This document shows, one piece after another, positions 15,500 through 41,029 of a stretch of 64,000 nucleotides of DNA. The notes below the pieces were generated by a model. That model ran no database searches. It worked only from the letters and a program-made list of their open reading frames with translations, and had not been told where the DNA came from. The DNA comes from a virus, in the IMG/VR virus record IMGVR_UViG_3300002225_000004; one strand, given 5' to 3'. The number at the start of each line of letters is the position of its first letter. The stretch's first letter is position 1. Made by a program: the position numbers and the translations under genes.

Positions 15500-15507
15500 C
15501 TATAGAT

Positions 15508-19699: not shown

Positions 19700-19709
19700 T
19701 ATTATTGTT

Positions 19710-20495: not shown

Positions 20496-21042
20496 CACAA
20501 TAATTATGGGGATAGATCTATCCTTCAGGAATACAGGCGTAGCAGTCATCGATAGGATTAAACATGGTGATTCCGTCGAGCTGAGACCAAGACTGGCTAC
20601 AGTTGTCACTACTAAAAAGCCAGAGAAATGCGAGACTCTGGACAGGGTGCGAAGAGAGATCAATAATATCAAGAGGCTTCGTATGGGGATAGAGGAGATG
20701 ATAGATAAATACAATCCTGACATAATCGTAATCGAGATCCCGCACTTCAGTCAGAGCGCATCTGGCTCATACGCTATGGGTATCTGTCACAGCATGGTTG
20801 AATCTATTCGCGACACCTACGACCTAAAGAAATTCGGTATCATCTTGCCTAAGCGGTTGAAAGACTGGGCTGGTTCCCTGAAGGGAGACGGCAAGGCAGC
20901 AGTGAAACATAAAGTGAGAGGGTATGACTGCTACTCCGAAATAAGAAACGACAACATTATAGACGCTATAGGCATAGCTCTGCTATGGTGTGACAAGCTA
21001 ACACTAGACGAACATGACCAAGAAGACTTTAACAATTGGTAA
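20488..21042 (+). CDS. RuvC-like Holliday junction resolvase
   Basis: MGIDLSFRNTGVA, VIEIP, NIIDAIGIA acidic triad. Confidence 0.85.
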   Translation: MSNTIIMGIDLSFRNTGVAVIDRIKHGDSVELRPRLATVVTTKKPEKCETLDRVRREINNIKRLRMGIEEMIDKYNPDIIVIEIPHFSQSASGSYAMGICHSMVESIRDTYDLKKFGIILPKRLKDWAGSLKGDGKAAVKHKVRGYDCYSEIRNDNIIDAIGIALLWCDKLTLDEHDQEDFNNW

Positions 21043-21574
21043 ACAGAAGGTGGTATTGATTCCTAATAAGAGTCGATCCTATGGGCAGATCGTAACACCC
21101 GAAGCATACTTCAATACAGCCGTATGCATGGTGCAGAACTTCGGCAGAGGATTGCACAAGGCGATCAAGAATGGAGCTATCGTTCTAGTAAGCAGCAAGT
21201 TTACCGAGCGTGCTTACCAGTTGCTTGATAAGACAACCGGTATGTTCATCTGTGAAGGCGCGCACATCTTTGGTGTCATCATTAAGAATAAGGTGTATCC
21301 ATTAGGAAACAAGGTTGTCTTTGAGCGGAACGTCGATGAGGTTCAGAAAGGAGCAATCGTCATCCCGGCTGCCCAGACATCTACGGATCAATCACTTAAT
21401 GGAACTATCTATGGATTTGGATTACCCGGAAGGAACATCCACATCAAGACGAAAGGACTTACTATAGGTAAGAAGGTTCGTCTCAGAAGTTGGGGAGAAA
21501 ATATGATCGAAGTCGGATGGCAGGACCGATATTTCCTGTTTGTAAATGAGGAAGATATTGTATGCGAACTGTAA
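21014..21574 (+). CDS. Tandem two-domain GroES-like protein
   Basis: C-half YPLGNKVVFER..GAIVIP..GTIYGFG..VNEEDIV; N-half is a diverged second GroES pattern. Confidence 0.65.
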   Translation: MTKKTLTIGKQKVVLIPNKSRSYGQIVTPEAYFNTAVCMVQNFGRGLHKAIKNGAIVLVSSKFTERAYQLLDKTTGMFICEGAHIFGVIIKNKVYPLGNKVVFERNVDEVQKGAIVIPAAQTSTDQSLNGTIYGFGLPGRNIHIKTKGLTIGKKVRLRSWGENMIEVGWQDRYFLFVNEEDIVCEL

Positions 21575-21606
21575 CAATACTAGCAACACCAAAGAACACT
21601 GATGCT

Positions 21607-21765
21607 ATGAATGACAAATGGGAATTCTATCAAGACAAAGCTGGAGAGTGGCGATGGCGTCGCACTGCCAGCAATGGCGAGATCGTAGGCGCAGCCACCG
21701 AGGGCTACGAAAACTATTCTTCATGTGAAGCTAACGCTATCCGTAATGGATACATCAAGCAATGA
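21607..21765 (+). CDS. YegP/DUF1508 family protein
   Basis: WEFYQDKAGEWRWRRTASNGEIVG..EGY. Confidence 0.85.
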   Translation: MNDKWEFYQDKAGEWRWRRTASNGEIVGAATEGYENYSSCEANAIRNGYIKQ

Positions 21766-21927
21766 AAAAAATAATATTATTTATCCTAGTGCTGCCAGGA
21801 TGTAGCTTCCTTGACAATTATTCACGCAGCTACTCGATTGGCTACGAGGATGAGGGCGGTCATCGGCTAGACTTCGGAATTGAATTATCTCCGATAGAGC
21901 CTCGTAAGTAATCGAACGCTAACAATC

Positions 21928-22233
21928 ATGGATCAAGAAGAACAAACTCGCGGTGGTTGCGTCACCGAATCAATCTTCGATGGCCCCTCAATCGTGCCTC
22001 TCGCAGATGTCCAACACATCGAAAAGCGCGGCGACGGGGGTATTATGGTCATCATGAAATCCACGACCTACGCCTTTGAGCAGGATGAGTGGATGAACTC
22101 CGTCTATTTTGCGAAGGGCGACGCTCAACGATTCATCGCCGCATGGTGCGGATACCGCTCCGAATTGGAGGCTTCGACACTGGCCGACATTTCTCCCGCG
22201 AACTCCGGTGATGACTCATCGCAAAGCGATTGA
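21928..22233 (+). CDS. Hypothetical protein
   Basis: GC-richer ORF at the end of the left arm. Confidence 0.65.
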   Translation: MDQEEQTRGGCVTESIFDGPSIVPLADVQHIEKRGDGGIMVIMKSTTYAFEQDEWMNSVYFAKGDAQRFIAAWCGYRSELEASTLADISPANSGDDSSQSD

Positions 22234-22263
22234 GTCTATCATATTTATCCCGTAAGGGAAGGT

Positions 22264-22305
22264 ATGAGGGAGACAGTTTCATAGGACTGCTTCTGTCTCC
22301 CTCAT
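22264..22305. terminator. Hairpin or terminator between the convergent arms
   Basis: 13-bp stem ATGAGGGAGACAG / CTGTCTCCCTCAT. Confidence 0.7.
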
Positions 22306-22309
22306 TAGA

Positions 22310-25300
22310 TCATCTTGTAAGACGCTTGATTAATTCAATCCTCTTCTTCTCGCGTGCCTCTATAGCTTTCGCTTGAGCTTCCGGCAGCTTCTCTTCAAGC
22401 GCTGTATCAATATCATACAGCTTATCCTCAACCTTGTCCCACTCCTTGAGGATCTTAAGCATGTCCGCTTGACCGAATCCTGCCGAACGACCTGCCAATA
22501 CCAGATCGTTCCAGTTGAATTCCTCAAGGCCAAGCACCCCATCACTAGCCTCCTTAAGTGAAGCATACCCCTGCTCCATGGTGGTTCCAGTGATACCACC
22601 AACACCCAAGTTGCTGAAGTTGGGATATGAATACGGAATATATTCAGACGCCTCCAGCAAAACCAATTGTTCAGATAACATTGCAGCTTCACCGAATCGC
22701 TTCCGATCTTTAAGGTCAGCGATCTGTGCAGACATTACATCTGCCTTGGCAGAGATCTCCTCCTTCATCAGTTCCTTGCTGTATCGATCAGGGACCATGA
22801 ACAGAAGTTTCTGAGGGATCTGCGGTCCTTGCATAAACAAGTGAAGCACTCCAAGCTCTTCTCTAAGGACAGCTTTGCCAAAGGCGGCAGGTGAGAAGTT
22901 CCTATTGGAGTATCTGTAGAGATGCTTCTTGATTGCTGTCGCTGCTTGTAGTTCAGCTTCCGCGTGCGCAACTAGAACATGGTCTCCAGTCGCCCTTGCG
23001 TCTTGCAGCTCACCTTCAATCTCCGCGATCTTTCCATCTTCATCATCATAGAGATCACGGATGAGCCCTGTGATAAGCATCGCGATACTCCCATTGATAA
23101 GGAATCTGCTCGATGTGAACATGAACGTCTGACCAAGGATGGCTCCAATCGTTTGTAGCTTTGACTTGATCTCCTCCTTATTCTCTCCAGTCTTAGCCAG
23201 CTCAATGATGTCCCGTGTTGCGAGATTCAACTGAGCGCCAAGCATGGTAACGTGTCCACTGAATGCCAGCGTGATGTTACGTGCGAATGAATACTTGGCA
23301 TCTCTGTCTGTGAATAGCTGACCACGTAGCACCTTGTTTGATGCGTTGAAGTTGCGCTCCACGTTAATGATGGCTTGCGATAGCTCAAGTCCATCTGGAT
23401 TAGCCCAGTCAACATCGGAGAGTTCCCCGATCTGACGACCCTTGACCTTCATCAAGCGAACGTATTCAGCAATAACCAGAGTCTTTGCCGTAAAGTCATC
23501 CCCTTGCCTAAGCGAGAACGTGATGACCTTTCCGGCGTCCTTGTTGAACTTCTCCAGACCCTTGACGATAGGCATTGCACGGATAGAATCCTCATCGATG
23601 ATTGGATTCTTCTTACGGTCAAGTTCTACCTCACCCATGAGTGAGCGGTTGGCAATCCACCTTGCATTCTCCGAGAAGAACTCATTCATCTTCTCACGAT
23701 TGGAAACATAATACAGCGAAGCATCCATCGCTCCACCAAGATTACCAGTCCTTGCTGTATAGTCTGAGAAGCCAGCAATACTTTGAGTGACGCCTTGATG
23801 GACTCCTGACAGAGCAACCCTAGCATACATCTCATTGAACAACTTCATGGTGGCAGACATTGCATCCAGGCTATCACCATTAAACATGGCGTTGTAGACT
23901 AGATCCTTAGCCCATGCCTCAAGTTGGTTTACCCTAGTATCAGAAGTGTGTTCACCTTTGATAAGCTTGTTGATAGGGTTTCCCTTCTTTAGCCTCTCCT
24001 TAAGGATGAACCGTTCTGCCGTAGTCTTAACAGTCATGGCAGAGATGCGCGCAGCTCTATCGAATGTGTTCTCGATATTGTTTGCGTAGTATCTTGTGCC
24101 GGGGCCAAGTGAGTCAGACCTGCGCTTCAAGTGACTCGGCCTTCCCGTCACAGACTTGCCTTGGAATTGGTTCTCGTCGAACGTATCCATCTTAGCATCG
24201 ATACTGACAGCCTCAAGCTCGCCAGTTGTCTTGGTCGCCATAGCTTCGATGACATGACGAGGGACATAGTTTGCCCACTGCTCAAATGGCTCGCCGTAGA
24301 ATCCTTCTGAGATGACTTCATTGGACAACCTTGATCTGTCAAGAATGTCGATCATCTTGTTGAGGGACGCGAGTCTTGCTTCACCCACCTTGAAGTCACC
24401 TGTTCCGATGCGTTCTTCGGCGGACTCCATCAATACATCCATAGGCGCATCGAGGTTATCCGCTTCAAGCCCAACTACCATCCGATCAAAGATAGGAATA
24501 ATATTATTTTTATGGGAGGAAACCGTCTCGCTGTCACCTTGATCCAGAGCGTTCTTATGTGACTGACGCTCGTTCTTAATGTTGCGCATGAGCGCCTTAT
24601 TGGGATCTTCACCAATGCGGAACTGAGTAAGGCGAGAGTAGATTGACATAGCTACATTGTCTGCTCCCTTCATCTCACGACCAAGCTTAGCCTCCAGTTC
24701 CTTGCGGTGCTGAATATATTCATCTACATCCTTATCGCGCATGTTCTCCGCATCGAGCATGATCTTCTGCATAAGCGGACCCATGAGATCTGCTTGAAGG
24801 AATGCGCGGGCTTGTGAGTGAGCGGACCAGCGATCAAGCTGAGTCTGCATGAGTTCTGTCAAGCGGACCAATCCATCGATAGACTTCAGGAACTTGTTCT
24901 TGTATAGGACTGGATCACGGAACTTAGACTTAAGCTCACTGAACTTCACCTTGCCGTCACGAACTCTCTGAATGTATGGGACTGTTGTCTTGTTGACGTA
25001 AGCAATCCTTCCGTCCATCAAGTTGTTCACCGCATAGAAGTGAGTGTAGAGTTCCTTACCTGTCATCTCGCCTACGTTAGCGATCTTGGTAAGGTAATCG
25101 AAGTGAGACATGACCACCTTCCTGAGATCAGGATCAATCTTACTTCCATTAATAAGCTCAAACTCTTCCACCCAATCGCTAGCAGACTTGTATTCAGATT
25201 TAATTTCCTCTACTGCTTCCGAATATTTCTTGCGCCATGCTTCTTGCTTCTTGTTTAGTCTGTTTGCTTGTGCTGCTGATCTGTTTGCTGTTGCTGTCTC

Positions 25301-28300
25301 ACGATCATTCTTCTCTGCTTGAGTCTCATTGGCAATCGCGCTATCATTAATGAACTTCTCAACCTCTTGACGATTGTCTGGATCACCCTTGAATTGGCTC
25401 ATATCAAACAGACCTGCATTAGCTGCTTTAATCTTGTTGATAGCAACCTGATCGATGAGGAACTTATACTTTACGAGCGCGTTAATTGTAGCCGCATTGC
25501 CTTCACGAAGGGCGGGATCTTTTACTTGGTTGTTCCGAGCATCATAGACATTATCAATGATCCGCATGAACTCTTTAACCGCTGTGTCTGGCAGAGCTAA
25601 GATTTCTTTAGGGTTGATCGACTTGACGATCTTCATGATCGTGGCAGTATTGCGATCTGTCTTGTCGCTAATCTTGCCCTTCCTGATTGCACGGAACTTA
25701 CGTCCAAACTCCTTGATCCCTCCGTCATTCTTGCTGTCGGGATTGATAGCATTCAGAGTCTCATTCGAGTGCATGAATGGAAGCGTATGCGATACGATGT
25801 TCTCATCGATGGCGAAGTCGATCATCGCATCGAATGCATCAGATACGTTTTGCTTCTGGATTACTCGACCGAAGCCAAACACATCCATTACCATCTGCTT
25901 GAACTTCTGCCATGCGGTAAGCTGTTGATCCGCTGCCGATGCGTGCATCATGCCACGGAAGTTCACATCAGACATTGCTGCTGCTACAAATTCATCTGCT
26001 GAAGTGAGCGCATAAGCGGCACGGATTTCTACTGCGGAAGCATTAGTTTTTTGGCGTAGTTGCTTATGGTTCATGGAGAACCACTTACTGAATGACGTAG
26101 CCTTATTTGGATTGGCCTTTTGATATTCGGCAAACTCTTGCTCGGCAAGCTCAAGAACCTCCTTCATCTTAGGGTCCGCACTTTCATAGTTGCGGACATC
26201 CTGCATCAGTCCTTCGATGTCAGCTTTAAACTTAGGATCACGGGCGATAGCATTACTGAGAACCGCGTGGGTGGATTCATGTAGAGCCATTACGGCTACG
26301 TCCGACCCGTCGAAGTTCAAAGAAATAATATTATTTACTGGATCATATGAGTTGAATGGGGATGACTGAACCTTAACCGTGTTGAGGAAATTGGCGATCT
26401 CCCTATTATTGATAGCCTTGGAGAAGAATCTTTTGAAGGGAGCGGCGATGAGATCCTTCTCGATCATCCAGTTGAATAGATCCGTTGCGTTTCTTACCGC
26501 TGTAGTAGACCCATCCTTGTTGGTGATGATTGTATCTGGTTCTGTCTGCTGGGATGGAGGTGCCGGAGCTTGACCGTCGTCTTGCAGTGCGCCGACATCA
26601 GTAGATTCCTGACCAAACCTTTCAGAGATAGGGATTAATTTTCCTTCCTCATCAGTAGGGAGAACTTCTTCGGTCTCGATTTGCTTATTGTCAAATACAA
26701 GAACAGCCGCCGCATCACTAGGATTATCCCCGCCTTCAAGCTGGCCTACCGAATCGAATCCTAGATCCTTGAGAGCATAAATAAGATCAGTTTTACTAAA
26801 GAAGTTTGCCTTGCTATCCAGTTCTTTAGTTGAAAACGGAATATCATAACCGTCAACATTCCAGTAAAGTTCATTAGGATCAGCGTCAGGGTCAAGCCTT
26901 ATTTCTTCACGGCGCTTCAACATGCTTTTCTGCATGTTCTCCCAAGTCTTCTCTTCTTTATCGAATTTTGCGCGCTCCGCGTCCGTGAATTGATAACTGA
27001 ATCCGTCGAACTCCATTGAGTAAGCATACTTGGCTATCGCATTCTCTAGTGCGGTAGTATCTTTTCCGCTAGACTTAATTGACTCTACTACATCAACCCA
27101 GTCCTTAAACTCCCAGAGCTTCAATGAGTTTCCGAGATTAAGATAAGCTTTATACAAGCCTCCTTTTACTGGTCCTTCTTTGTTGTAACTACCCGCAAAA
27201 TCCCTAGATAAAGACTCGGACTTTGAAAAGAATATAGGAACCCCAAACTTCTTAATGCCTTTGATTGCGGACCCGTGAAAGAACCCTCCTTCAAATCCTA
27301 ATGACTCAGCTATCCTGTCTTGGATTTCCTTTGCTTTTATGAGATCGTTATCAGCAATAGCTCTGTTAAATGAATTTTCAGCTAGAGTATTTGATTGTGA
27401 TTGTCCGTCTTGCAGTGCGCCCATCTCTGCCTTAACTTCATCTGCTTTCTCCTTAGATACTGGATCTCCATTCTTCTCTAAGATCTCAATATCTTTACCG
27501 TCAAAGGCCACGAAGTTGCTATACCCTTCGCCGCGCATACGACTCATTCCGTCGAGGAACTTAATTCCTTTAATGCCATGCTTGAGAAGCAACTCGCTGC
27601 GCTCTTTATCTGATTTTAGTCCATCCCTCTTTGTGGTTCCCGTGTAGAATATGCTGTTATATATTGACGATCCTTTTGTGGAGTTTTCTATTCCATTTTC
27701 AACGGATGGAATCCATACTCCGGCCTCCTTTAATTTTTCAATTACTTCTGGATGTTGATCTTCTGGTCTCTTATCCCAATCAAGAAGCTCGTTATCCTCT
27801 GCTTTGAAATCAATCTTATAGAGGTTGCCTTTAAAGTCGTCACCTTTTCGGTCTGGATTTAAAGTGATGTCACCTGACTTAACCAGATCAGCAAGCTTGT
27901 GTAGATATTTAGACGTTGTGTTTCTTCTGATTGCTGCGGCAGTGGCTCGTTTGCTTTGTCCGGGAGCGAACGCTTTGGATATATTTAGCAAGTCAGATTG
28001 GCTAACCATTGGCATTGAAGCCATCGCCTTATTAGCCTTATCTGTAAAAATAAGATTATTTTTACCTCTAGCTTGTTGTCCAATTTTCTCTTGGTAGAAT
28101 TTACCTACTGATTTGTTCTCCGCGAAGTAAAGCCCCCATCCATATGCCTGCACTCCTTCACCTGTTCCGACGTAATCAGTATCGAATCCTCCTTCAATAT
28201 CAGCACCGGTCCCGTGGTAAGCAAGAGCATAGTCATTAATCTGGCGAAGCATAAGCTTCTTCGCTCGGTTGAGCGCACCTTGCGGAATGGTTGAGCGTAG

Positions 28301-31300
28301 GTTCTGCTTTACTGCTGCAAGTTTCTCATCGATGTTCTCATCTGTAACCGTATCAGAGAATGATACAATCTGATTCCACTTAGTTTCAGTTTCATTATTA
28401 GAGCGCCCTTCAATATTAGCAATTCCATCCTGGTCGAATCCAATCTCAGCCATGCCGGGAATGTCCCTAGCGGCAGACTCGAATGCCATAAGTTGCTTAG
28501 CGAGATTTTCGGCAACCACGTATCGTCCCATGCCATAAGCTATGGCGATGTTTCGCGCAATGGCTTGCTGTGGAGTGTATGCTTTAAGTGATGAATACAT
28601 ATCCGCATATAGCAAGCCGGACAGCTCACGATATTTCTTTGCGGTCTTAAACTCTTCCTGAATCTCCTTCTCTCTAGCAAGGGTTGGGATTGTGTCCTGA
28701 TCTATCTCAAGCCCACGTTCCTCCGCCCGCTTTAAAATAATATTATTTAATAAGTCGGTATCAAGCTCCTCTTGAAGATCATGGAATCCCAGATTAGCAT
28801 TGATCTTCTGGCGAATCTCCTTGATGTCATTACTGGAGCTTGCATGGTTATACAGATCTCCGAGGTATTCCATCGCCTCATCATACATGCCTTTGCCGTA
28901 TGAAAAAATCTTCGCCATGCCTGTATTAGTATTCTCAGCAATGGTTGAGATAGTCGCGAATGATTCTGGATGTCCTCGCTGTATATTGCGGGAGTCCTGA
29001 AGTGTAGCCTGAGCTTGCGATGATACGCGGGGATCAATGGTGAGTGCGTCTAGGGTTTCTCCTACAATTTCTTCCCTTGTTTCTTTTGAGACTGGCGTGT
29101 CATTTTTTTCTAGTATCTCAATGTCCGCGCCGTCGAAGACTACAAAGTTATATGTCCCTTCTCTATTTCTTCTACTCTGCCCATCTAGGAACTTAATTCC
29201 TTTAATTCCTATATCAAGCAATGCTAAGCTTCTTGCTTTATTGTCTTCACTGCTAAATAAAGAGCCATCATTGATAAAGTTATAAATTTGTTGTCCTGTG
29301 TAAGGGTGATCCACTTCCGATTTAAGTCCTAATCCAAGCTTGACAAGTTTCTTTTTTACTTCTGGATGCTGATCTTTAAAATCCTTATCCCAATCGAGAA
29401 GCTCATTATCCTCTGCTTTGAAGTCTACTTTGTAAAGATTGCCTTCGTGATTAAACTCTTTAATCGAAGGTATGTTCTCCAAATTAAAGTATGACATCCA
29501 TGCAAGTCTCTGTGTTGCATCTTCATAATAATCTTCACTAACCTTTCCTTCGCGCTCAAGCCCAGGACCTTCTATTGCGTCTTTCTGAGCCCAGCCATGA
29601 ACAGTGTCATATCCAAACTGAGCGATGTCGTTTAGGAGTTCGTCAAACCTTAAATCACCTTCGATTAAGCCTGCTCCCACTGTCTCCATAAACTTATTGC
29701 GACCATATTTCCTTGAAAGAGTTTCGCGATAATCTTTGGCTACATCTTTTGCTGTAGCGAAGTAGAGACCCCATCCGAACACCTGTAGCCCTTCACCAGT
29801 TCCCATGAACTTAGTGCTGAACCCTCCAAGGATCTCATGCGGTGTTCCGTGGAATGCAAGTGCGTCTAGTGTTTCGGACTCGGTATCAAGATCATCATCA
29901 GTAATATCAATTCCGAATAGATCCTTGGATGATGCTTCTGCTGCTTCTAGCGCTGCTTTAATCTTTGGATCTTCTTCTGCCGCTTGCTCGCGATCTGGAT
30001 TGATCGGTGGCGTAGTTGGCGAGGTAACTGGAGTGACGGCAGGTTGGACTGCGGGCTGCGCTACTGGTGTAGGTGCGCCAGCGGCTAACCTTGTTGCTGC
30101 TCGACTCCTAGATAGCGGTGAGTTGACATCTGGGTTCAGCTCCGATGTAGTTTGCTCACGACCGAATGACTGAGGGGTTCCTGCCGTTGGATCGAATCCA
30201 AATAACTTTGCGAACTGCTCATCCAATTTCTTGTTAGCTTGAAACTTGGATGGAAGGAATTGAGCAAAGTAATCACGAACACCTTTATAGACATCGCCTA
30301 CCCAGTTCTTCAGCTTGCCAAAGACTTCGGCTTCAACCTCATTCTTGGGCTCTGCTCTAGCCATCCAATCAAGAGCATTATTAGCAAGCCTCTGGTCAGA
30401 CTCAACTCCAAGTTCGTTTGTCTGTAAGTTCTCACGGATAACTTCCATGCCGTCTGCGCCAAGGATGTCTTCCATGATTCCGGTCTGACGAAGCGCGCTC
30501 ATCACCCCAGCGAATAGAGATCCTACTTCTCCGTTCTGAGTGAACGCAATATTAGTATTGCCGTCTACATCCTGATAAGTAGTAGCGCCTTGGTTGTCCT
30601 TACCGGTGATGAACTTGCCTACGATGTCTTGAAATGGGATGAGTGAATCCGCGCCTTCAAAGTTAAGCTTCTTGAAGAAATCATTAGCAACTCTGCCTGC
30701 TCCTGAATCAGCCCACTTATTAGCTAGGATGTCTAGGATGCCAAGAATCTCGGTAGAGCGTTCAGGGTCTAATGCGCCATCATCACCTAGACCGTCGATC
30801 TCATCTTTGACTCTAGCTCTGTCTGGGATAAGTTTATTAACTTTATCTTGTGTCCCCTCATTTGGATTGGTGAGAACGTCAGACAATGCCTGAGCTTCTG
30901 CGCTTTCTGATAATGGGAATAGCGATGGCTGCTCTGGTCTAGCTTGGTTAGCCGTTCCTTCCCCTGATTGCGCGGCAGCTTGACGAGCTAGATTTTCGGG
31001 TAATACTTCTGCTGGTTTAGTTGATGCACCAAACGAGTCGGGGAATAAAGCATCTGGATTGTCACCTTCTACTACTGTATTCGCTGCTTCATAAGCTTCC
31101 TTGTAGCGACCTTCGTTGACAAGCTTGCTTACGCTTTCGTTTACTTCTGCTTGAGTGAGTGAAGAACGCTTGCCAGAAGTATCATCAAGTGCCGCTTGGG
31201 TCTTACCTAAAATAATATTATTTTTTGTAGTGAATCCCTCCGGTCCTTTGCGGATTCCTCCAATCTCTGTAGCTGAGGCAACACCACCGCCAAGGACTGC

Positions 31301-32356
31301 GCCAAGCGCGAACGATTCAAACTGAGATGTAGCATCGGGAATGAACGACTCTTCTTCAGTCATCAGGTATGATCCATATCCAGACGACAAATCTCCCATC
31401 CACTCAGATGCACCCTCACCAAATCCATCACGCATCACTCCGAAAGCTTTCTTGCGAAGGCTTTCGTCGTTCATGATCTGAGAGATTGTCTTACGTTTAA
31501 CCGAGTCAGCACCCTTAAGCCCACGAATAAACTTCTTAGGAAGGAAGCGACCAGCAATAAGTCTATCACCAATCATTTCAATAGCAGCGCCAGGAATTGC
31601 ACCTACGCCTGCATCGTTAGCTTTCTCCTGAGACATGCCCATATCGATAGCCTGATTGTAAGCGTCCTGATATTTACGGGTGGATGTTCCTGCAAGCAAG
31701 AATCCTGTTCCTCCTACTGGTGATCCGGTTACGATAGATCCCGCTACGAATACAGCGGTAGACGATCCTAGATCTCCCAATCCTGTAGCAAGCTTTGCCG
31801 TGAAGTCGTCGTCATAGTCTGGGTTATCCGCCACCCAGTTACGAACGTCCTGAGCTTTCTCATCCGCACCTACGAACCCAAGGATGCCTGCGGTGAATCC
31901 CTCAAAGACTCTCTTGAACTTATCCGATGCCCACCCTGTGTCTCCACCGATAGCTTTGCGTAATGCGTGATCTGTTACTGCGTTAAGATAGAATCCGCGA
32001 TCCTCCTTGTTGACGGGATCTTGCGCCGCGAGATCAGGAATGGTTCCACGGAAGTCTTCCAGTAGCTTCTCCTTTACATCCTCGCTTTTGATTGCCCAGT
32101 CTTGATCCTCCCAAGGAAGCGGAGCATCGATCTCTGAACGCATAGGAATATACCTTCCTTGCCCGGTGGCGCGGAGGTGCTTCTTATTGATAGACTCAGA
32201 GATGCGATTTACCGCCTCCTCCTCGAAAGGACGCTCCTTTAGGTATTCCGATCTAAGCCCTTGGAGAACAGCTTGTTGCCTTTCTTGCGGAAGACTGTTA
32301 TAAGCATCAGTCCTTACAGCCGCATTGACTGAATCTTGGTATTCTACTAAGTTCAT
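22310..32356 (-). CDS. Giant polyvalent virion or injected protein (3348 aa) with three ART-like modules and an HExxH zincin module
   Basis: FHGT..GTGEG.Q.FGWGLYFA, YHGT..GTGEG.QAYGWGLYFA, FFHGS..IFFS, ALHESTH; position at the end of the structural operon. Confidence 0.85.
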   Translation of the reverse strand: MNLVEYQDSVNAAVRTDAYNSLPQERQQAVLQGLRSEYLKERPFEEEAVNRISESINKKHLRATGQGRYIPMRSEIDAPLPWEDQDWAIKSEDVKEKLLEDFRGTIPDLAAQDPVNKEDRGFYLNAVTDHALRKAIGGDTGWASDKFKRVFEGFTAGILGFVGADEKAQDVRNWVADNPDYDDDFTAKLATGLGDLGSSTAVFVAGSIVTGSPVGGTGFLLAGTSTRKYQDAYNQAIDMGMSQEKANDAGVGAIPGAAIEMIGDRLIAGRFLPKKFIRGLKGADSVKRKTISQIMNDESLRKKAFGVMRDGFGEGASEWMGDLSSGYGSYLMTEEESFIPDATSQFESFALGAVLGGGVASATEIGGIRKGPEGFTTKNNIILGKTQAALDDTSGKRSSLTQAEVNESVSKLVNEGRYKEAYEAANTVVEGDNPDALFPDSFGASTKPAEVLPENLARQAAAQSGEGTANQARPEQPSLFPLSESAEAQALSDVLTNPNEGTQDKVNKLIPDRARVKDEIDGLGDDGALDPERSTEILGILDILANKWADSGAGRVANDFFKKLNFEGADSLIPFQDIVGKFITGKDNQGATTYQDVDGNTNIAFTQNGEVGSLFAGVMSALRQTGIMEDILGADGMEVIRENLQTNELGVESDQRLANNALDWMARAEPKNEVEAEVFGKLKNWVGDVYKGVRDYFAQFLPSKFQANKKLDEQFAKLFGFDPTAGTPQSFGREQTTSELNPDVNSPLSRSRAATRLAAGAPTPVAQPAVQPAVTPVTSPTTPPINPDREQAAEEDPKIKAALEAAEASSKDLFGIDITDDDLDTESETLDALAFHGTPHEILGGFSTKFMGTGEGLQVFGWGLYFATAKDVAKDYRETLSRKYGRNKFMETVGAGLIEGDLRFDELLNDIAQFGYDTVHGWAQKDAIEGPGLEREGKVSEDYYEDATQRLAWMSYFNLENIPSIKEFNHEGNLYKVDFKAEDNELLDWDKDFKDQHPEVKKKLVKLGLGLKSEVDHPYTGQQIYNFINDGSLFSSEDNKARSLALLDIGIKGIKFLDGQSRRNREGTYNFVVFDGADIEILEKNDTPVSKETREEIVGETLDALTIDPRVSSQAQATLQDSRNIQRGHPESFATISTIAENTNTGMAKIFSYGKGMYDEAMEYLGDLYNHASSSNDIKEIRQKINANLGFHDLQEELDTDLLNNIILKRAEERGLEIDQDTIPTLAREKEIQEEFKTAKKYRELSGLLYADMYSSLKAYTPQQAIARNIAIAYGMGRYVVAENLAKQLMAFESAARDIPGMAEIGFDQDGIANIEGRSNNETETKWNQIVSFSDTVTDENIDEKLAAVKQNLRSTIPQGALNRAKKLMLRQINDYALAYHGTGADIEGGFDTDYVGTGEGVQAYGWGLYFAENKSVGKFYQEKIGQQARGKNNLIFTDKANKAMASMPMVSQSDLLNISKAFAPGQSKRATAAAIRRNTTSKYLHKLADLVKSGDITLNPDRKGDDFKGNLYKIDFKAEDNELLDWDKRPEDQHPEVIEKLKEAGVWIPSVENGIENSTKGSSIYNSIFYTGTTKRDGLKSDKERSELLLKHGIKGIKFLDGMSRMRGEGYSNFVAFDGKDIEILEKNGDPVSKEKADEVKAEMGALQDGQSQSNTLAENSFNRAIADNDLIKAKEIQDRIAESLGFEGGFFHGSAIKGIKKFGVPIFFSKSESLSRDFAGSYNKEGPVKGGLYKAYLNLGNSLKLWEFKDWVDVVESIKSSGKDTTALENAIAKYAYSMEFDGFSYQFTDAERAKFDKEEKTWENMQKSMLKRREEIRLDPDADPNELYWNVDGYDIPFSTKELDSKANFFSKTDLIYALKDLGFDSVGQLEGGDNPSDAAAVLVFDNKQIETEEVLPTDEEGKLIPISERFGQESTDVGALQDDGQAPAPPSQQTEPDTIITNKDGSTTAVRNATDLFNWMIEKDLIAAPFKRFFSKAINNREIANFLNTVKVQSSPFNSYDPVNNIISLNFDGSDVAVMALHESTHAVLSNAIARDPKFKADIEGLMQDVRNYESADPKMKEVLELAEQEFAEYQKANPNKATSFSKWFSMNHKQLRQKTNASAVEIRAAYALTSADEFVAAAMSDVNFRGMMHASAADQQLTAWQKFKQMVMDVFGFGRVIQKQNVSDAFDAMIDFAIDENIVSHTLPFMHSNETLNAINPDSKNDGGIKEFGRKFRAIRKGKISDKTDRNTATIMKIVKSINPKEILALPDTAVKEFMRIIDNVYDARNNQVKDPALREGNAATINALVKYKFLIDQVAINKIKAANAGLFDMSQFKGDPDNRQEVEKFINDSAIANETQAEKNDRETATANRSAAQANRLNKKQEAWRKKYSEAVEEIKSEYKSASDWVEEFELINGSKIDPDLRKVVMSHFDYLTKIANVGEMTGKELYTHFYAVNNLMDGRIAYVNKTTVPYIQRVRDGKVKFSELKSKFRDPVLYKNKFLKSIDGLVRLTELMQTQLDRWSAHSQARAFLQADLMGPLMQKIMLDAENMRDKDVDEYIQHRKELEAKLGREMKGADNVAMSIYSRLTQFRIGEDPNKALMRNIKNERQSHKNALDQGDSETVSSHKNNIIPIFDRMVVGLEADNLDAPMDVLMESAEERIGTGDFKVGEARLASLNKMIDILDRSRLSNEVISEGFYGEPFEQWANYVPRHVIEAMATKTTGELEAVSIDAKMDTFDENQFQGKSVTGRPSHLKRRSDSLGPGTRYYANNIENTFDRAARISAMTVKTTAERFILKERLKKGNPINKLIKGEHTSDTRVNQLEAWAKDLVYNAMFNGDSLDAMSATMKLFNEMYARVALSGVHQGVTQSIAGFSDYTARTGNLGGAMDASLYYVSNREKMNEFFSENARWIANRSLMGEVELDRKKNPIIDEDSIRAMPIVKGLEKFNKDAGKVITFSLRQGDDFTAKTLVIAEYVRLMKVKGRQIGELSDVDWANPDGLELSQAIINVERNFNASNKVLRGQLFTDRDAKYSFARNITLAFSGHVTMLGAQLNLATRDIIELAKTGENKEEIKSKLQTIGAILGQTFMFTSSRFLINGSIAMLITGLIRDLYDDEDGKIAEIEGELQDARATGDHVLVAHAEAELQAATAIKKHLYRYSNRNFSPAAFGKAVLREELGVLHLFMQGPQIPQKLLFMVPDRYSKELMKEEISAKADVMSAQIADLKDRKRFGEAAMLSEQLVLLEASEYIPYSYPNFSNLGVGGITGTTMEQGYASLKEASDGVLGLEEFNWNDLVLAGRSAGFGQADMLKILKEWDKVEDKLYDIDTALEEKLPEAQAKAIEAREKKRIELIKRLTR

Positions 32357-33987
32357 TTCGTGCTTTGTTCTAATCCTGCAATAACTAAGGCGGAGTAAAT
32401 ATCAATGAAGTTTCTGCGAGTTTCTGCTTCATTCATGCCTGAAGACTTAATCATTTTCTTTAATTCATCCATGCTAGAAATAGCATATCTTTCTTTATTC
32501 GCCCTACCCTCAGAGATAAATCCTTCTCCTCCTAAATTAGAATCAATGCTAAGGGCGGTAGCTCCCTTTCCAATGATGTATTCCTTGCCGGGCTTAGAGC
32601 TTTTAACTATGATTGGTTTTCCCGAAAGGACAACATCCTCAATGGCTGGATTATGGATGAGAGACACAAGATCATCATTGCTCATCCTGTTTAATCCAAC
32701 ATTAAGATTTCTGTGCAGAAGCCCCCTTACTGCTCCGATCTTATTCTGCGAGTCGGCAGGTTCCGACAGCCAATCTACAGTCCAATCGTCTTGTCCGGCC
32801 TTAATCAGAGATTCATTAAGCCCGCCTAATGGATTAACCGGATTGCCTTCCTTGTCCTCAGTAATTAGTTTAGACGAAAAATCACGAACCGCAATATCTT
32901 TTTTCTCTACTGCGCTATCTTCTTGTTTATTGAACGGGTCTAGCTTAGATGGCGGAACCTTATCTAAGTTTGCCTCTTTGGTAACCTTGTCTAAGTCTGA
33001 CTCTGATTTGCTTGGGGGAGGTGTGCCTTTAGGGGTGATCTTGATTCCTCCTAGCGCATTAGCAAGAGTCTGCCTTCTTCTTTCTGTAGCGGCGGCAATG
33101 TCATCGTGGTTTTGCTTGATTGCTTTATCAAGTGATCCGGTTGGATCAGCTAAAGCGGCAGTAGAAAGCTTAGATCCTTGTTCAAATAATAGTTTGATTT
33201 CAAAATCCTGATAAGCAAGATCGTCTCTTGTGATTTGCAGAGACGAAAGTTCTTCTGGTGTGAACTTATTGCCATGACTATTCATGACTTTAACCATATC
33301 GGAATCACTTCCGGTAAGGATAGTTCCACGAATGCCAGACATCGCTTTGCTGATATTAGGATCGTGCGCTCCATCATACCTAGCCTTACCACTAGTATCC
33401 CCAAGCGCACCCATAAGGAATGATACCTCTGGATTGTATTCTGTATCTACTGGAGCAGTGACACCCTTGAATCCATCGTTCAGTTTCCTGATCTCCTTCG
33501 CGTAAGCTTCGTCATCCCATGTCCCACCCTTCAGTATATTGGATTCATACTTGGATTTAATAGCCAGATACCCTTTAGCATATTCGGGGCTCTGGTTCTT
33601 CATGAAGTTAGCCGAGATGATAGTATCAAATGGCTTCGTCAATGAGTTGAACTGACCCTGATTGTAAAGAGTCGTCTGGCGTTGAGCGTTAGTCTTCGCA
33701 TTCTGAAGCTTAAGTTGCTCGGTCTCAATCTGGAGAGGCATCAGTTGCTTCTTAACCTCATACTCAGCGGCAAGGATGCTATTCCTGAAAGCGGTCTCAC
33801 GAAGCTGCGCGTCATTATAGCGACTCTGCTCTGCGAACTCAGCTTGACGCATAGCTTGCTCTGCGATGAACCGCTCCTTCTGAAGTGTGAGGCTAGCAGT
33901 CTGGGTCATCTGCTGGCTAATCAAACCCATAGCTTGCGCAGCTTGTTGCTGCGAGCTATTCAGGATCTCTAATGCTGTATTAGACAT
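32353..33987 (-). CDS. Putative internal virion or injection protein
   Basis: Q/A-rich helical N-terminus; lies between the pilot-like and giant proteins. Confidence 0.55.
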   Translation of the reverse strand: MSNTALEILNSSQQQAAQAMGLISQQMTQTASLTLQKERFIAEQAMRQAEFAEQSRYNDAQLRETAFRNSILAAEYEVKKQLMPLQIETEQLKLQNAKTNAQRQTTLYNQGQFNSLTKPFDTIISANFMKNQSPEYAKGYLAIKSKYESNILKGGTWDDEAYAKEIRKLNDGFKGVTAPVDTEYNPEVSFLMGALGDTSGKARYDGAHDPNISKAMSGIRGTILTGSDSDMVKVMNSHGNKFTPEELSSLQITRDDLAYQDFEIKLLFEQGSKLSTAALADPTGSLDKAIKQNHDDIAAATERRRQTLANALGGIKITPKGTPPPSKSESDLDKVTKEANLDKVPPSKLDPFNKQEDSAVEKKDIAVRDFSSKLITEDKEGNPVNPLGGLNESLIKAGQDDWTVDWLSEPADSQNKIGAVRGLLHRNLNVGLNRMSNDDLVSLIHNPAIEDVVLSGKPIIVKSSKPGKEYIIGKGATALSIDSNLGGEGFISEGRANKERYAISSMDELKKMIKSSGMNEAETRRNFIDIYSALVIAGLEQSTK

Positions 33988-34000
33988 AAAATAATATTAT

Positions 34001-35026
34001 TTAAATGACAAGCGAATTCCAAAGATTGTAAGAGCTGGCATATGGAGATCCGGCATTCCAGTATTCCATAAGAGGAGACACTGAAGAAACTGCATTTGTT
34101 GGAACTTCTCCTGGCAATGGCGGAAGAACGGAATTATAACCATACGGATCACCATTAGAAGGAGGTGGGCCTAAGTCTCCGTAAGTGGTTGGCAAGGCTC
34201 CCCCATAATCACCTCCGCCGCCTCCGGCATAGTTGCCAGCATAGTTAGTTTGCGGTGGCTGGAATGCTGCTGGCGCTCCGTATCGTGCGGATGCAGGTTG
34301 ACTTGAAGCTACGTCAACTGGCCCACGGAACATAGGCACTGCATTGTTTGCAATACCATAACCAAGCGTAGACGCATAACCTCCTATGGAAGTGAGTGCC
34401 GATCCGAACGCTGCCGTTCCGATGCCTTGTGCTTCTGCTCGTTGCTGAACCGCACCCGTCTTAACCGCAAGTTCCTGATTATCGATCTGCTGTTGACGCT
34501 CAAACCTTTCATCAAGTAATCCAAACTCAGTGCCAAGCATATTCATGCTTTCTCCTCCAAGGAAGGAAGAGATCTGCAATCCAGTATTGACACCTTGCTG
34601 TCTAAGGTTGCTGACGTTCTGTGCTGATAGCTGAGTGAATGCCCCTACTGGTGACCCGGCACCAAACGTATTGGCAACCGTGGAAGACATAATATCTTTG
34701 AGCTGATCCTCAAATGCACCGAAGTCTCCTGCCGCTAGACGCAAGTAATCATTCTGCCCTTTACGAAGTAGATCAAGATTCTCCTGAGTCTGCAATGATG
34801 GACCGCCACCAAACCTATCAAGCGTAGTATTGATATTGTCAAGCTTCTCAGTCTTGTCCTTAAGCATCGCATCAAGCCTTTCAGATTGCTTCTTAGCATT
34901 CTTCTTAGCCATCTGCGAATTCACATAAGCAGCGGTCTTGCTTGCTTCCGCCGCTTCAGATGCACCAAATGCAGAAGCAATAGAACCAAGTGCTGATGTA
35001 GCCAATCCTCCAATAATTAGTGCCAT
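34001..35026 (-). CDS. Putative DNA injection (pilot-like) protein
   Basis: G/A-rich N-terminus MALIIGGLATSALGSIASAFGA; G-rich segments. Confidence 0.55.
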   Translation of the reverse strand: MALIIGGLATSALGSIASAFGASEAAEASKTAAYVNSQMAKKNAKKQSERLDAMLKDKTEKLDNINTTLDRFGGGPSLQTQENLDLLRKGQNDYLRLAAGDFGAFEDQLKDIMSSTVANTFGAGSPVGAFTQLSAQNVSNLRQQGVNTGLQISSFLGGESMNMLGTEFGLLDERFERQQQIDNQELAVKTGAVQQRAEAQGIGTAAFGSALTSIGGYASTLGYGIANNAVPMFRGPVDVASSQPASARYGAPAAFQPPQTNYAGNYAGGGGGDYGGALPTTYGDLGPPPSNGDPYGYNSVLPPLPGEVPTNAVSSVSPLMEYWNAGSPYASSYNLWNSLVI

Positions 35027-35028
35027 GA

Positions 35029-36081
35029 TTAAATTTGTTTTAGAATTTCTGGAGTGTCGTCTGCCGTCATGCCAATCAACTGCAACGGGAAAACATCTGG
35101 AGATTCCTTTTCGCGCTTCTCTTTCTCCAGCGCGTTGATTCCTTGATTGATATACACGGTCCCCTTCTCGATGTCTTGCTTATGATACACTAAATAGATA
35201 CCCATTGCAAGAGAAATAATAGCCTCATCATCGGAAATAATAATTGGCTGGCTTTCATCTACAATGATCGGCTGTTCATCAATCTTAAATAGACCATGAA
35301 CCGTGTCGCAACAAGTCTTCGGGATTCTATACCGTTTGATTGGTGACTTATATTCCCAAGGATACAATGTGTTTACCCGCTTACCTACTCCTGTAGCTGG
35401 ATCTACCGCAATAACCTCGATCAAGCCCATAGTGATAGTCTTGTTGATGGATGCGATGTCCGAGAAAATAATATTATTTATATATTGGAAATCACTGGTA
35501 ATGGTAAACTCAATGCCGTGAACCGTTCTCGCGAGGGAGGCTTCTTCAACCGCAACACAGTTGCACCCAGAGGGGAACTTATCCTTGATTGACTCGTAAG
35601 AGAATGCTTGCTCTCCATCTGCTGTCGGTCCCTGAATCCAAAGCTTCTCACCTTCGCCAGCATCCGATAACGATCTGACTCCAAGCATAGCTCCGTCAGG
35701 AAAGTGAGCCTTGAAATCAAATAAACAATTCTGAACTCCTTCATCATATACGTCTTCATTCCAACAGGCTTCTCCACTTTGATCTACATCACCGTATCCG
35801 TTCTTATGGAACATGAAGTGAATGTCGCGAAAGGTGCGAGGTTCACAATTCACATTCAAGCCAATCATATTTGAGTATCCGAAAGGCGAGATAATAAATT
35901 TACCCCCACATAAATCCTCTTGAACCGGGACAAACATCTCTGCCGTCATCCCGAACCACTTGCCTTCCTTCCATGCACGGTTGATTCCCAGCCGTAGAAT
36001 GTTCCAGATCTTTACGGAATCCTGCGGGTAAACACAATCGACAAACTGTGCGATAGTTTCTGCTCCTTGCCCTGCGTTCAT
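35029..36081 (-). CDS. Structural protein (possible adaptor or tail tubular protein A)
   Basis: Synteny only; in-frame palindrome INNIIFS. Confidence 0.45.
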   Translation of the reverse strand: MNAGQGAETIAQFVDCVYPQDSVKIWNILRLGINRAWKEGKWFGMTAEMFVPVQEDLCGGKFIISPFGYSNMIGLNVNCEPRTFRDIHFMFHKNGYGDVDQSGEACWNEDVYDEGVQNCLFDFKAHFPDGAMLGVRSLSDAGEGEKLWIQGPTADGEQAFSYESIKDKFPSGCNCVAVEEASLARTVHGIEFTITSDFQYINNIIFSDIASINKTITMGLIEVIAVDPATGVGKRVNTLYPWEYKSPIKRYRIPKTCCDTVHGLFKIDEQPIIVDESQPIIISDDEAIISLAMGIYLVYHKQDIEKGTVYINQGINALEKEKREKESPDVFPLQLIGMTADDTPEILKQI

Positions 36082-36491: not shown

Positions 36492-36500
36492 AAAATAATA

Positions 36501-39412: not shown

Positions 39413-39424
39413 AATTAAATAATA

Positions 39425-39655: not shown

Positions 39656-39659
39656 ATAT

Positions 39660-40669: not shown

Positions 40670-40674
40670 AGGAA

Positions 40675-40962: not shown

Positions 40963-40988
40963 AAAAATAATATTATTTAAAGTGGTTG

Positions 40989-41018: not shown

Positions 41019-41029
41019 ATGTGAACAGA

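Follow-up and report, generated by a model that had tools for sequence, protein, structure and literature searches.

The window analyzed here, a stretch of 64,000 nucleotides, belongs to the circular genome of an uncultured marine phage (70,890 bp, ~71 kb). Its genes include one of 10 kb for a giant polyvalent protein, a capsid gene, and a conserved early module that joins an HNH-fold zinc protein, a RecE-like exonuclease, a RuvC-like resolvase, and helicases. Within genes and at the junctions between genes of the window lie 36 exact copies of the 12-mer AATAATATTATT (Table 1), compared with 0.00 in 100 dinucleotide-preserving shuffles. The full circular genome holds 42 copies, with the remaining 6 in the 6.9 kb beyond the window, for a mean density of one copy per ~1.7 kb. 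The word is A/T-only, perfectly symmetric, and spacerless, and it is the same on both arms. In the window, the copies are flanked by A in 34 of 36 cases and by T in 31 of 36, extending the 12 bp to a 14-bp palindrome. Only two near-misses (≤2 mismatches of 14) were found in 70,890 bp, which is the chance level; the copies are exact.

The copies are also evenly spaced. Gaps between the 42 copies of the circular genome had a coefficient of variation (CV) of 0.49 and a maximum of 3658 bp. When copies were placed uniformly in simulations, a maximum gap no larger than that observed had P = 1e-4, and the observed CV was not reached in any run; when just the 8 clearly intragenic copies were re-placed, P was 6e-4. 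About 25 copies in the window phage are at junctions and 8 to 12 are within coding sequences, and the gaps at long genes are filled by in-gene copies. A sequence-only reading of this DNA had listed copies from 21769 to 33989 with gaps of 2727, 1827, 2412, 2475, and 2779 bp. The gaps are all exact and the copies are real, at 21770, 24497, 26324, 28736, 31211, and 33990; the earlier coordinates equal the 12-mer positions minus 1 because that reading counted the 14-mer. The four copies between 21770 and 33990 divide the 10-kb gene nearly equally (P = 3.5e-4 for their evenness), and copies within the giant gene of a relative, L121, were likewise even (P = 0.007). Close pairs of copies, 121 to 216 bp apart, also occur.

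Table 1. Palindrome copies and associated genes in the window
Feature	Coordinates	Strand	Remarks
Whole array	50..63573	.	36 exact AATAATATTATT copies in the window
In-frame copy, GNNIIF	8433..8444	.	In SF2 helicase gene 8286-9674; divides a gap otherwise of 4443 bp
In-frame copy, RNNIIF	11403..11414	.	In gene 11127-11690
EKIILL copy	12359..12370	.	In gene 12213-12674; sole clear copy in the other open frame
181-aa protein, four CxxC pairs, HNH-type fold	15484..16029	+	Weak candidate reader; in all 9 relatives examined
KNNIIS-stop copy	17073..17084	.	3′ end of DHH gene; next ATG 2 nt on
Junction copy	21770..21781	.	4 nt past the stop of gene 21562-21765; left edge of a 12.2-kb stretch without another junction site
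Giant "polyvalent" protein gene, 3348 aa	22310..32356	-	ART-PolyVal domain at aa 1693-1893; four in-frame copies
In-frame copy, giant gene, KNNIIP	24497..24508	.	aa 2617-2620; orthologues QTIV, KVVI, DTIV
In-frame copy, giant gene, VNNIIS	26324..26335	.	aa 2008-2011; orthologues SNTI, DNRI, HNYI
In-frame copy, giant gene, LNNIIL	28736..28747	.	aa 1204-1207; orthologues gapped or poorly conserved there
In-frame copy, giant gene, KNNIIL	31211..31222	.	aa 379-382; orthologues gapped there
Junction copy, entire spacer	33990..34001	.	Last base overlaps the stop of gene 34001-35026; ATG of gene 32353-33987 2 nt off
In-frame copy, INNIIF	35467..35478	.	In gene 35029-36081; orthologues NNVS, CNIK, NNVT
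Copy pair 43147 + 43361, 214 bp apart	43147..43372	.	Encloses an intrinsic terminator, a TTGACA-17-TAGTAT promoter, and the capsid gene 5′ leader
SNNIIF copy	55342..55353	.	Codons 9-12 of gene 54238-55377; may precede the true start

The in-gene copies reveal selection on the DNA word. The earlier reading had placed four of them in frame in the 10-kb gene, within KNNIIP, VNNIIS, LNNIIL, and KNNIIL, and had named an SF2 helicase and a DHH protein as further hosts, all of which was confirmed (the latter two genes at 8286-9674 and 16167-17090). Its count of 12 coding copies, 11 reading NNII and one KIIL, can be accounted for: conservative gene calls gave nine NNII copies plus KIIL (12359), and 11 is reached with two further readings, at copy 50 (in a gene crossing the window start) and copy 61808 (in an alternative open reading frame [ORF]). 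The copy at 21770 can be read as KIIL only in a doubtful 49-aa ORF. As claimed, the codons AAT AAT ATT ATT lie behind every NNII peptide; AAT makes up 50% of Asn codons and ATT 35% of Ile codons. NNII peptides were observed 9 times against 0.2 predicted from composition, a 45-fold excess. Orthologues do not conserve NNII (Table 1), and relatives carry their own sites mostly elsewhere in the genes, at similar spacing, with 3 to 6 copies per giant gene, in agreement with the prediction of the earlier reading. The fixed codons and the lack of peptide conservation thus bear out the proposal that the DNA word, and not the peptide, is selected. Orthologue alignments show that sites arose by substitution, with no four-codon insertions, and a mobile 12-bp insertion was rejected on that ground. 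A protein repeat was also rejected, as the residues flanking NNII are unrelated.

No fewer than nine further related phages have arrays of this kind, whose sites occupy the same gene junctions and, inside long genes, new in-frame positions. Across 16 loci (the window phage and at least nine relatives), there was one site per 1.1 to 2.0 kb, and the gap CV was 0.36 to 0.71 in the six loci with gaps tabulated. The conserved junctions carry lineage-specific versions of the word, with at least six half-sites (AAATAAT, AATAAAT, AATTAAT, AATAAAC/G, AATTAAC/T, and ACTTAAT), each with its mirror image on the opposite arm. Two versions leave the innermost 2 bp free; a CA or TG center relative to the coding strand showed no bias (5:7 and 6:3). 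Hybrid sites made of two different half-sites are used, and mixed or hybrid versions coexist within single genomes (L121, L127, and L131 to L133). The deviant half-site was always downstream on the coding strand in L121 (6/6) and L122 (5/5), which hints at a polar component unexplained by a purely symmetric reader. The version does not simply follow phylogeny, because L127 to L129 share AAATAAT with the window phage despite core proteins only ~35% identical to its own, while L121, at 47% identity, has a different version. A hairpin or cruciform was rejected, since hybrid half-sites would break it and the motif RNA is predicted to be unstructured (minimum free energy [MFE], 0 kcal/mol). Site-specific recombination sites were rejected as well, since identical unoriented sites would scramble the genome. 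No cultured relative, close or distant, was found in 50,697 phage records by DNA, terminase, or tail protein. IMG/VR scans with the terminase and with an alignment of a 487-aa protein did not find relatives, a 14-mer scan of IMG/VR returned single chance matches only, and just 4 short loci came from a metagenome scan. GTDB genomes scanned with a terminase alignment had no match, and binning therefore gave no host clue. Among sequencing runs, the phage was listed in a single DNA data set, a marine metagenome that is probably its source, and in no RNA data set.

Among 124 copies tallied in the clade, 75 are at junctions and 49 are internal to genes. A start codon follows within 0 to 9 nt in 46 of the 75 junction copies, and most junction copies contain or touch a stop codon; if the start is distant from the stop, it is the stop that the copy adjoins. 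No use of Shine-Dalgarno sequences was detected in the phage, no conserved −35 element and no conservation past position −4 were seen around the motif, and no Rfam family was found in the window or in one relative, L124. In-gene copies have no start codon after them, and the window motif, being perfectly symmetric, is without orientation. Relatives share the arrangement at the capsid gene, with copy pairs 203 and 216 bp apart. The sequence-only reading had argued against a simple promoter, operator, or translation signal. Its doubt about a simple promoter or translation signal is supported by the unoriented motif, the in-gene copies, the separate sigma-70-type promoter and terminator between the two copies upstream of the capsid gene, and the unfolded RNA. 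Its exclusion of an operator was not supported, as an array of protein-binding (operator-like) sites, comparable to stoperators and Cluster O repeats, is the best reading.

A protein that could read the palindrome was sought in the phage. Pfam and PHROGs scans of ~60 proteins found no helix-turn-helix, ribbon-helix-helix, or ParB-type domain; ParBc had no match in these proteins or in the relatives' precomputed Pfam hits, a search that could miss divergent members. PDB sequence profiles yielded nothing. In column-by-column covariation analysis, none of seven conserved early proteins tracked the half-site version, and the zinc/HNH protein had only 2 tracking columns. This 181-aa protein is nonetheless a weak candidate for the reader, judging from fold and dimer predictions. 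It matched an HNH PHROG (E = 1.8e-4), and its AFDB fold-cluster matches were almost all HNH (best E = 3e-4), while fold matches to solved HNH nucleases were weak (Z ≤ 3.6). Its 9 orthologues lack conservation of the canonical HNH His and Asn but do conserve Tyr22 and Tyr66. PacI was absent from the results of every search. A homodimer model scored 0.55, against 0.00 for the best of 3 controls, and was predicted to be symmetric, with 100% of contacts agreeing between runs and a partner pLDDT of ≥80. Among proteins solved as one-chain pairs, 20 of 30 attained that mark, compared with 1 of 23 among single-chain structures; these counts hold only roughly because our own alignment was used.

Other proteins were considered. 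A 261-aa protein has a weak likeness to a replisome organizer and probably reads a separate iteron array rather than the palindrome. A 347-aa protein resembles the Pam3_Gp34/DUF5895 families. The 487-aa protein has a confident predicted fold (pLDDT, 79) that matched no solved fold. The DNA methyltransferase at 18980-19699 (phrog_757) cannot be the reader because relatives lack it.

We judge the chances to be about even that a sequence-specific double-stranded DNA (dsDNA)-binding protein with two-fold symmetry (a homodimer) docks at the palindrome; it would most likely be encoded by the phage. A dimeric dsDNA-binding protein is suggested because the site has two-fold symmetry, its central 2 bp are free in some versions, and hybrid half-sites are tolerated; these features suit an RNA hairpin, a promoter, or a translation signal less well. 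The spacing statistics suggest a dependence on distance along the DNA. The phage keeps a site within ~1.5 to 2 kb of every point on its chromosome, and the protein would act locally from each site, by spreading, sliding, bridging neighboring sites, or forming a roadblock, such that the whole genome is covered. Sites would be placed where their cost is lowest. At junctions, the A/T-only word forms the whole spacer, giving the upstream gene its TAA stop and the next gene an A/U-rich leader free of Shine-Dalgarno sequence. In an over-long gene, point mutations would make a site where Asn, Ile, Lys, or Tyr residues were already plentiful, and the reading frame would be the one with common codons. 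In relatives, the half-site has drifted in step on both arms. The close pairs count against this coverage model, as coverage does not need them.

It is a speculative possibility, and an unlikely one, that the array is a nucleation grid for a system that coats or organizes the phage chromosome, with a dimeric reader (e.g., a degenerate HNH-type zinc protein) acting over ~1.5 to 2 kb. The reader would load at each palindrome, with a fold not previously used for such a role. Its reach would be only ~1.5 to 2 kb, and a site would therefore be needed at least every ~3.5 kb, even at a cost to protein sequence.

A stoperator-like operator array, in which a phage regulator blocks or tunes RNA polymerase at each gene boundary, is unlikely. 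The even spacing would then be only a by-product, with one block required for each gene-sized unit and hence also within very long genes. The number and density of sites resemble those of stoperators (~30 per 50 kb), copies lie between the promoter and start codon of first genes (61360 and 43147, the latter 26 nt before the capsid ATG), and copies bracket intergenic regions with a promoter and a terminator. Against this, no repressor, integrase, or partition gene was recognized in the window genome or the relatives' loci by Pfam, PHROGs, or precomputed hits, most proteins being without a family, and the phage looks lytic. The sites are symmetric, unlike the transcription-oriented stoperators, and the four near-equidistant copies in one ORF (P = 3.5e-4) exceed what one site per gene would need.

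Less probable is that the palindromes are sites of a phage nuclease or nickase, such as the conserved HNH-fold dimer, whose regular nicks or breaks would seed recombination-dependent replication or serve packaging. Small HNH dimers can read A/T-only palindromes, as PacI does, and site-specific nicks exist in phage T5. Nuclease sites are typically all-or-none, as the exact 42 copies are; the early module sets the HNH-fold protein beside recombination and helicase functions, and that protein is predicted to be a symmetric dimer. However, its canonical catalytic residues are not conserved and its matches to solved nucleases are weak. The genome would fall apart if both arms of all 42 palindromes were cut, and the assemblies are contiguous circles, with which nicks are still compatible.

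We give little credence to a host-encoded protein (a nucleoid protein, regulator, or defense component) whose site the phage exploits, with versions reflecting different hosts. Distant members share a version while closer ones differ, and no phage reader was found, as this explanation would have it; the hybrid versions within single genomes look like gradual coevolution and not like host switches. An RNA-level signal, with the A/U-rich word acting in translation initiation or stop-start reinitiation in a host that does without Shine-Dalgarno pairing, is very improbable. The junction copies just before start codons, the stops within the word, and the absence of Shine-Dalgarno motifs would suit it. 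However, 49 of 124 copies are inside genes with no start codon after them, and the copy stays by the stop when the start is far away. RNA does not require a palindrome, yet all six versions are palindromic; they also differ among close relatives, and the RNA is unstructured. Least likely of all is a promoter made of a −10 element alone, used by a phage-modified RNA polymerase as the T4 late promoter TATAAATA is, and palindromic to work on both arms. In its favor, TAATAT and TATTAT are both found in the word, ATAAATA is found in the version of one relative, and many genes are preceded by copies. However, T4-type −10 elements are asymmetric, at a fixed distance from transcript starts, and read with a gp55-like sigma, whereas these sites are symmetric and 0 to >50 nt from the ATG. 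Pfam and PHROGs scans revealed no RNA polymerase or sigma-like gene, a symmetric promoter would produce antisense transcripts everywhere, and the in-gene copies and the copy just before the terminator (43361) would be senseless as promoters.

To our knowledge, a single publication (Cluster O, 2015) has described genome-wide arrays of an invariant short palindrome in phages, and it presents them as a curiosity with no known function. The present array is an unusually clean case: its copies are exact, the 10-kb gene is a natural test of selected spacing, and relatives show the word changing in step at ~40 places. Identifying the reader and its action would account for a constraint that recurs in the genome architecture and protein sequences of phages and could reveal a new viral means to organize, protect, or regulate a whole chromosome. 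If the nucleation grid were true, it would represent a widespread, undescribed layer of phage chromosome biology. With their putative readers, the lineage-specific words would be ready-made orthogonal protein-DNA recognition pairs.

The known systems ParB/parS, Noc/NBS, and KorB/OB rely on 13- to 16-bp palindromes scattered along a replicon, from which the protein spreads or slides. The likeness is in logic only, in that spreading would naturally set a maximum useful spacing; those systems use far fewer sites per kilobase, and no ParB-type domain was found among the proteins scanned here. The start-associated sequences (SAS) of Cluster K phages are tied to translation starts and include the ribosome-binding site. 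SAS are a conserved 13-bp word a few base pairs upstream of a subset of start codons (PMC4351075). They are not known to lie in genes and are not perfect palindromes, unlike the copies here, which lie deep in genes or beside stops far from starts. The hyperabundant palindrome HIP1 (GCGATCGC) of cyanobacterial chromosomes is selected both inside and between genes (Xu et al. 2018, PMC5861425); its distribution is nonrandom, and peptide, RNA, and expression roles are unsupported (PMC5861425). Unlike the present word, HIP1 is 8 bp and GC-rich, belongs to cellular chromosomes rather than to phages, has a 10- to 90-kb periodicity, and is not at gene junctions.

The stoperators of Cluster A phages are up to ~30 near-identical 13-bp sites for an L5 gp71-type repressor (PMC6550527, PMC9283540), and their motif covaries with the repressor between related phages (PMC6550527). 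Both arrays consist of near-identical sites throughout the genome, mostly in short intergenic spaces, with a motif that differs among relatives. Stoperators, however, are asymmetric and transcription oriented and serve a monomeric immunity repressor in temperate phages, whereas the present site is a perfect 12- to 14-bp palindrome in a phage with no recognizable repressor or integrase, and its spacing is kept via in-frame copies.

Together with the stoperators, the closest published comparison is with Cluster O mycobacteriophages. Their 17-bp dyad repeats (TGTTCGG-N3-CCGAACA) number 34 invariant copies, of which one-third fall within genes (Cresawn et al. 2015, PMC4351075), and were proposed to be binding sites of a dimeric protein (PMC4351075). 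Both systems have more than 30 invariant inverted-repeat copies over a genome of ~70 kb (42 in 70,890 bp here), located in short intergenic spaces and coding regions, with a variable center. Cluster O repeats are unoriented with respect to transcription; the window motif is perfectly symmetric, but the deviant half-sites of L121 and L122 are always downstream. In Cluster O, the density of sites rises at one end of the genome, and the sites were not reported as even or as filling long genes, unlike those here. The present word is A/T-only and spacerless, can form a whole stop-start junction, and has at least six lineage-specific versions. The two systems share no relationship in phage lineage, host, or sequence, with no DNA or terminase match in the 50,697 phage records, and the likeness of the two arrays is one of kind, not of descent.

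The 64-kb window contains 36 copies of the palindrome core AATAATATTATT; dinucleotide-preserving shuffles contain none. The 12-mer is flanked by A in 34 of 36 copies and by T in 31 of 36, with no conservation further out, and the unit is therefore a perfect 14-bp palindrome, AAATAAT-ATTATTT. The window represents 64 kb of a circular contig of 70,890 bp, the remainder of which (locus L124) was recovered via a window protein; the whole circle carries 42 exact copies. Only two words in the genome lie within two mismatches of the palindrome, which is near the chance level. The sole one-mismatch relative, AAATAAGATTATTT, sits in the giant gene at a distance of 688 bp from an exact copy; it could be a site in decay or one that is just arising.

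The genome is that of a novel tailed phage that encodes tail-like proteins and has no relatives among 50,697 phage records. A marine metagenome is the only sequencing run listed with its DNA; a second sample contains a 10.5-kb stretch with 100% identity to it. Outside the array, several short palindromes are under-represented genome-wide (AATT, 214 versus 271-385 expected; AACGTT, 2 versus 10-14; AATTAAT, 0 versus 4-6), which may reflect restriction avoidance. Coordinates and versions of the site are collected in the table.

Features of the window phage and half-site versions in relatives
Feature	Position	Strand	Remarks
487-aa protein	13970-15433	+	Early module; conserved across clade; modelled with confidence (pLDDT 79)
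181-aa protein	15484-16029	+	Early module; four CxxC pairs; in all nine relatives
347-aa protein			Early module; Pam3_Gp34/DUF5895-like
RecE-like exonuclease			Early module
261-aa replisome-organiser-like protein			Early module
RuvC-like nuclease			Early module
Tandem GroES			Early module
239-aa methyltransferase	18980-19699	+	PHROG 757 "DNA methyltransferase", E = 5e-51
Giant gene, 3348-aa "polyvalent" protein	22310-32356	-	ART-PolyVal domain
One-mismatch relative of palindrome	28048-28061		In giant gene
Terminator, promoter and leader of 696-aa capsid-like gene	43148-43372	-	GC hairpin and T-run, TTGACA-17-TAGTAT
Terminase-like gene	47870-49969
Overlapping ORF calls, start of early arm	61490-62059 and 61873-62520	+	Region 61490-62520
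Iteron array, CAGTGTTCA-based	L124:4245-4632		15-bp spacing; gene-free; ~380-770 bp past window's right end
AAATAAT-ATTATTT (window version)	L127-L129
AATAAAT-ATTTATT	L118, L121
AATTAAT-ATTAATT	L120, L122, L126
AATAAA(C/G)-..TTTATT	L119, L123		Central 2 bp free
AATTAA(C/T)-..	L130-L132
ACTTAAT-ATTAAGT	L133

The even spacing of the array is real and has firm statistical backing. Around the circular genome, gap lengths average 1688 bp, with a coefficient of variation (CV) of 0.49 and a maximum of 3658 bp. Uniform placement gave a mean largest gap of 7308 bp (P = 1e-4 for a maximum no larger than observed), and no simulation attained the observed CV. When the junction copies were held fixed and only the eight clearly intragenic copies were re-placed, the observed maximum was attained in 6 of 10,000 trials. 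The four giant-gene copies divide the 12.2-kb stretch between the junction copies at 21770 and 33990 so evenly that its largest piece is 0.227 of the whole (minimum possible, 0.200; P = 3.5e-4). The sequence-only reading had proposed that proteins accept an amino acid constraint in order to preserve this spacing; a spacing constraint acting through selection on the DNA is supported, with replication in relatives. Site pairs 121 to 216 bp apart, closer than coverage would demand, do not fit the idea neatly.

The four giant-gene copies were confirmed exactly as reported earlier, with the same encoded peptides and the same five gap lengths. Of the eleven copies said to read NNII, nine were found with conservative gene calls; the others are the copies at 50, inside a gene crossing the window start, and at 61808, inside an alternative ORF. 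The single KIIL copy was found with conservative calls, and the codons AAT AAT ATT ATT encode NNII in every case, as had been stated. AAT accounts for half of the Asn codons of the phage and ATT for a third of its Ile codons, and NNII was seen 9 times versus 0.2 predicted from composition. The NNII frame is preferred over the KIIL frame because of codon usage, ATA making up 16% of Ile codons and TTA 12% of Leu codons. The third frame contains TAA and is also in use; in 11 or 12 junction copies, the stop codon of the preceding gene lies within or overlaps the palindrome, and 15 copies are followed by the next start codon at a distance of 1 to 6 nt.

A terminase search returned about 100 homologues, many on contigs of about 70 kb, and the giant protein, used as a query, recovered its orthologues. 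Nine further phages were examined over 20 to 30 kb each, and all nine had their own over-represented 14-bp dyad. Across 16 loci, there is one site per 1.1 to 2.0 kb; in the six loci with tabulated gaps, the CV is 0.36 to 0.71 and the largest gaps are 2.1 to 4.3 kb. Placement is likewise similar, with a stop codon within or touching the site and, for 46 of 75 junction copies, a start codon 0 to 9 nt past the site; a further 49 copies are internal to genes. Giant genes carry three to six in-frame copies, and those of L121, a relative, are nearly equidistant (1489, 2886, 2448 and 2900 bp; P = 0.007).

Protein alignments decided the check that the sequence-only reading had proposed. The window NNII columns align without gaps to QTIV/KVVI/DTIV, SNTI/DNRI/HNYI and NNVS/CNIK/NNVT in orthologues, and the relatives' ININ, INVY and NKYY sites lie opposite unrelated residues in the window protein. 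Sites tend to originate at protein spots that are rich in Asn, Ile, Lys or Tyr or are poorly conserved. Occasionally, two lineages have a site in the same column, each with its own version (GKININSL versus AKINVDFL). The DNA word is therefore under selection, at a small cost to the protein, and sites within genes change position while their spacing persists. Both expectations of the sequence-only reading, that NNII would not be conserved and that relatives would place sites differently at similar spacing, were thus borne out.

Half-site version and phylogeny disagree: the window phage has the same version as L127-L129 (~35% core-protein identity) and not that of the closer L121 (47%). Either AAATAAT is ancestral, or the reader protein (the putative protein that binds the palindrome) was exchanged, or it is host encoded. 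In L121 and L122, sites with a single deviant half always carry it downstream relative to the coding strand (6 of 6 and 5 of 5 sites, respectively), in both genome arms, suggesting a degree of polarity or a constraint imposed by the neighbouring start codon.

All versions have dyad symmetry, and a change in one arm is matched in the other. Two versions leave the central 2 bp free, and the orientation of these bases shows no relation to the coding strand (5:7 and 6:3). Hybrid sites, in which the two half-sites differ, occur in several genomes and suit a dimer with monomers that accept either base. Ahead of the capsid gene, the coding strand carries, in succession, stop codon, palindrome, strong intrinsic terminator, A/T-rich stretch, TTGACA-17-TAGTAT, leader of ~100 nt, palindrome, 26 nt and ATG; two other lineages have the same two-site bracket, with sites 203 and 216 bp apart. 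Since TTGACA-17-TAGTAT lies between two copies, a conventional promoter exists apart from the palindrome, and the host therefore uses sigma-70-type promoters. Together, symmetry, hybrid sites, the absence of an RNA fold for the word and the separate promoter best fit a putative homodimeric protein that binds double-stranded DNA. The same observations argue against a pure translation signal, a promoter, a terminator or an RNA hairpin, upholding the earlier case against a promoter or translation signal. A hairpin or cruciform would be broken by the hybrid half-sites. The array most likely constitutes genome-wide docking sites for a putative dimeric DNA-binding protein. Almost no gene in the window phage has a Shine-Dalgarno motif. 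This lack may explain how a word of A and T alone can stand in for the intergenic spacer with no harm to translation, and also the A/T richness of every version in genomes of 37 to 52% G+C.

Comparison of about 60 proteins with Pfam and PHROGs yielded no DNA-binding family. A conserved early module of seven members is common to all nine relatives. Its 181-aa protein is predicted to have an HNH-type fold, from a PHROG match (E = 1.8e-4) and matches to AFDB fold clusters, almost all of them HNH (best E = 3e-4). Against solved HNH nucleases it reached only Z <= 3.6, and the canonical catalytic His and Asn are absent. Its homodimer model passed a controlled test (0.55 versus 0.00 for the best of three controls); 20 of 30 proteins solved as one-chain pairs and 1 of 23 solved as single chains attain that mark (own alignment; counts are rough). 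Contact agreement between runs was 100% with pLDDT >= 80, and the predicted homodimer is symmetric, with the degenerate HNH core (residues 66-72 and 105-116) as its interface. The sequence shows no visible correspondence with the half-site version. On these models, we regard the 181-aa protein as a candidate reader of the palindrome, nothing more.

The 487-aa protein, modelled with a single helix of about 80 residues, matched nothing in Pfam, PHROG, PDB-sequence or Foldseek searches. For the 261-aa protein, the CAGTGTTCA iterons are a more likely target than the palindrome. Their array has at least 11 registered copies plus inverted copies, is bracketed by palindromes at L124:4018 and 4806 and, judged by its sequence, looks like a replication origin. 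The methyltransferase, which matches no Pfam family, is absent from the relatives examined; its gene is inserted between the exonuclease and replisome-organiser-like genes, which are adjacent in relatives. Two identical contigs have conflicting public gene calls in the region that opens the early arm; a 215-aa product of this region has an N-terminal segment that is helix-turn-helix-like by eye and no family match.

Among known systems, a ParB, Noc or KorB mechanism would impose an upper limit on spacing; the about 60 proteins scanned included none of this kind. Cyanobacterial HIP1 is a selected in-gene palindrome of cellular genomes whose function is unexplained (PMC5861425). Cluster A stoperators resemble the array in density and in having a lineage-specific motif, but they are asymmetric and oriented, bind a monomeric immunity repressor and belong to temperate phages (PMC6550527). 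Among published cases, the closest is the 17-bp dyad repeat in Cluster O mycobacteriophages, which is present in 34 invariant copies, has a variable centre and lacks orientation; one in three copies lies in a gene, and its function is unexplained (PMC4351075). The window phage array is a particularly clean case of an already known, unexplained feature of phage genomes.
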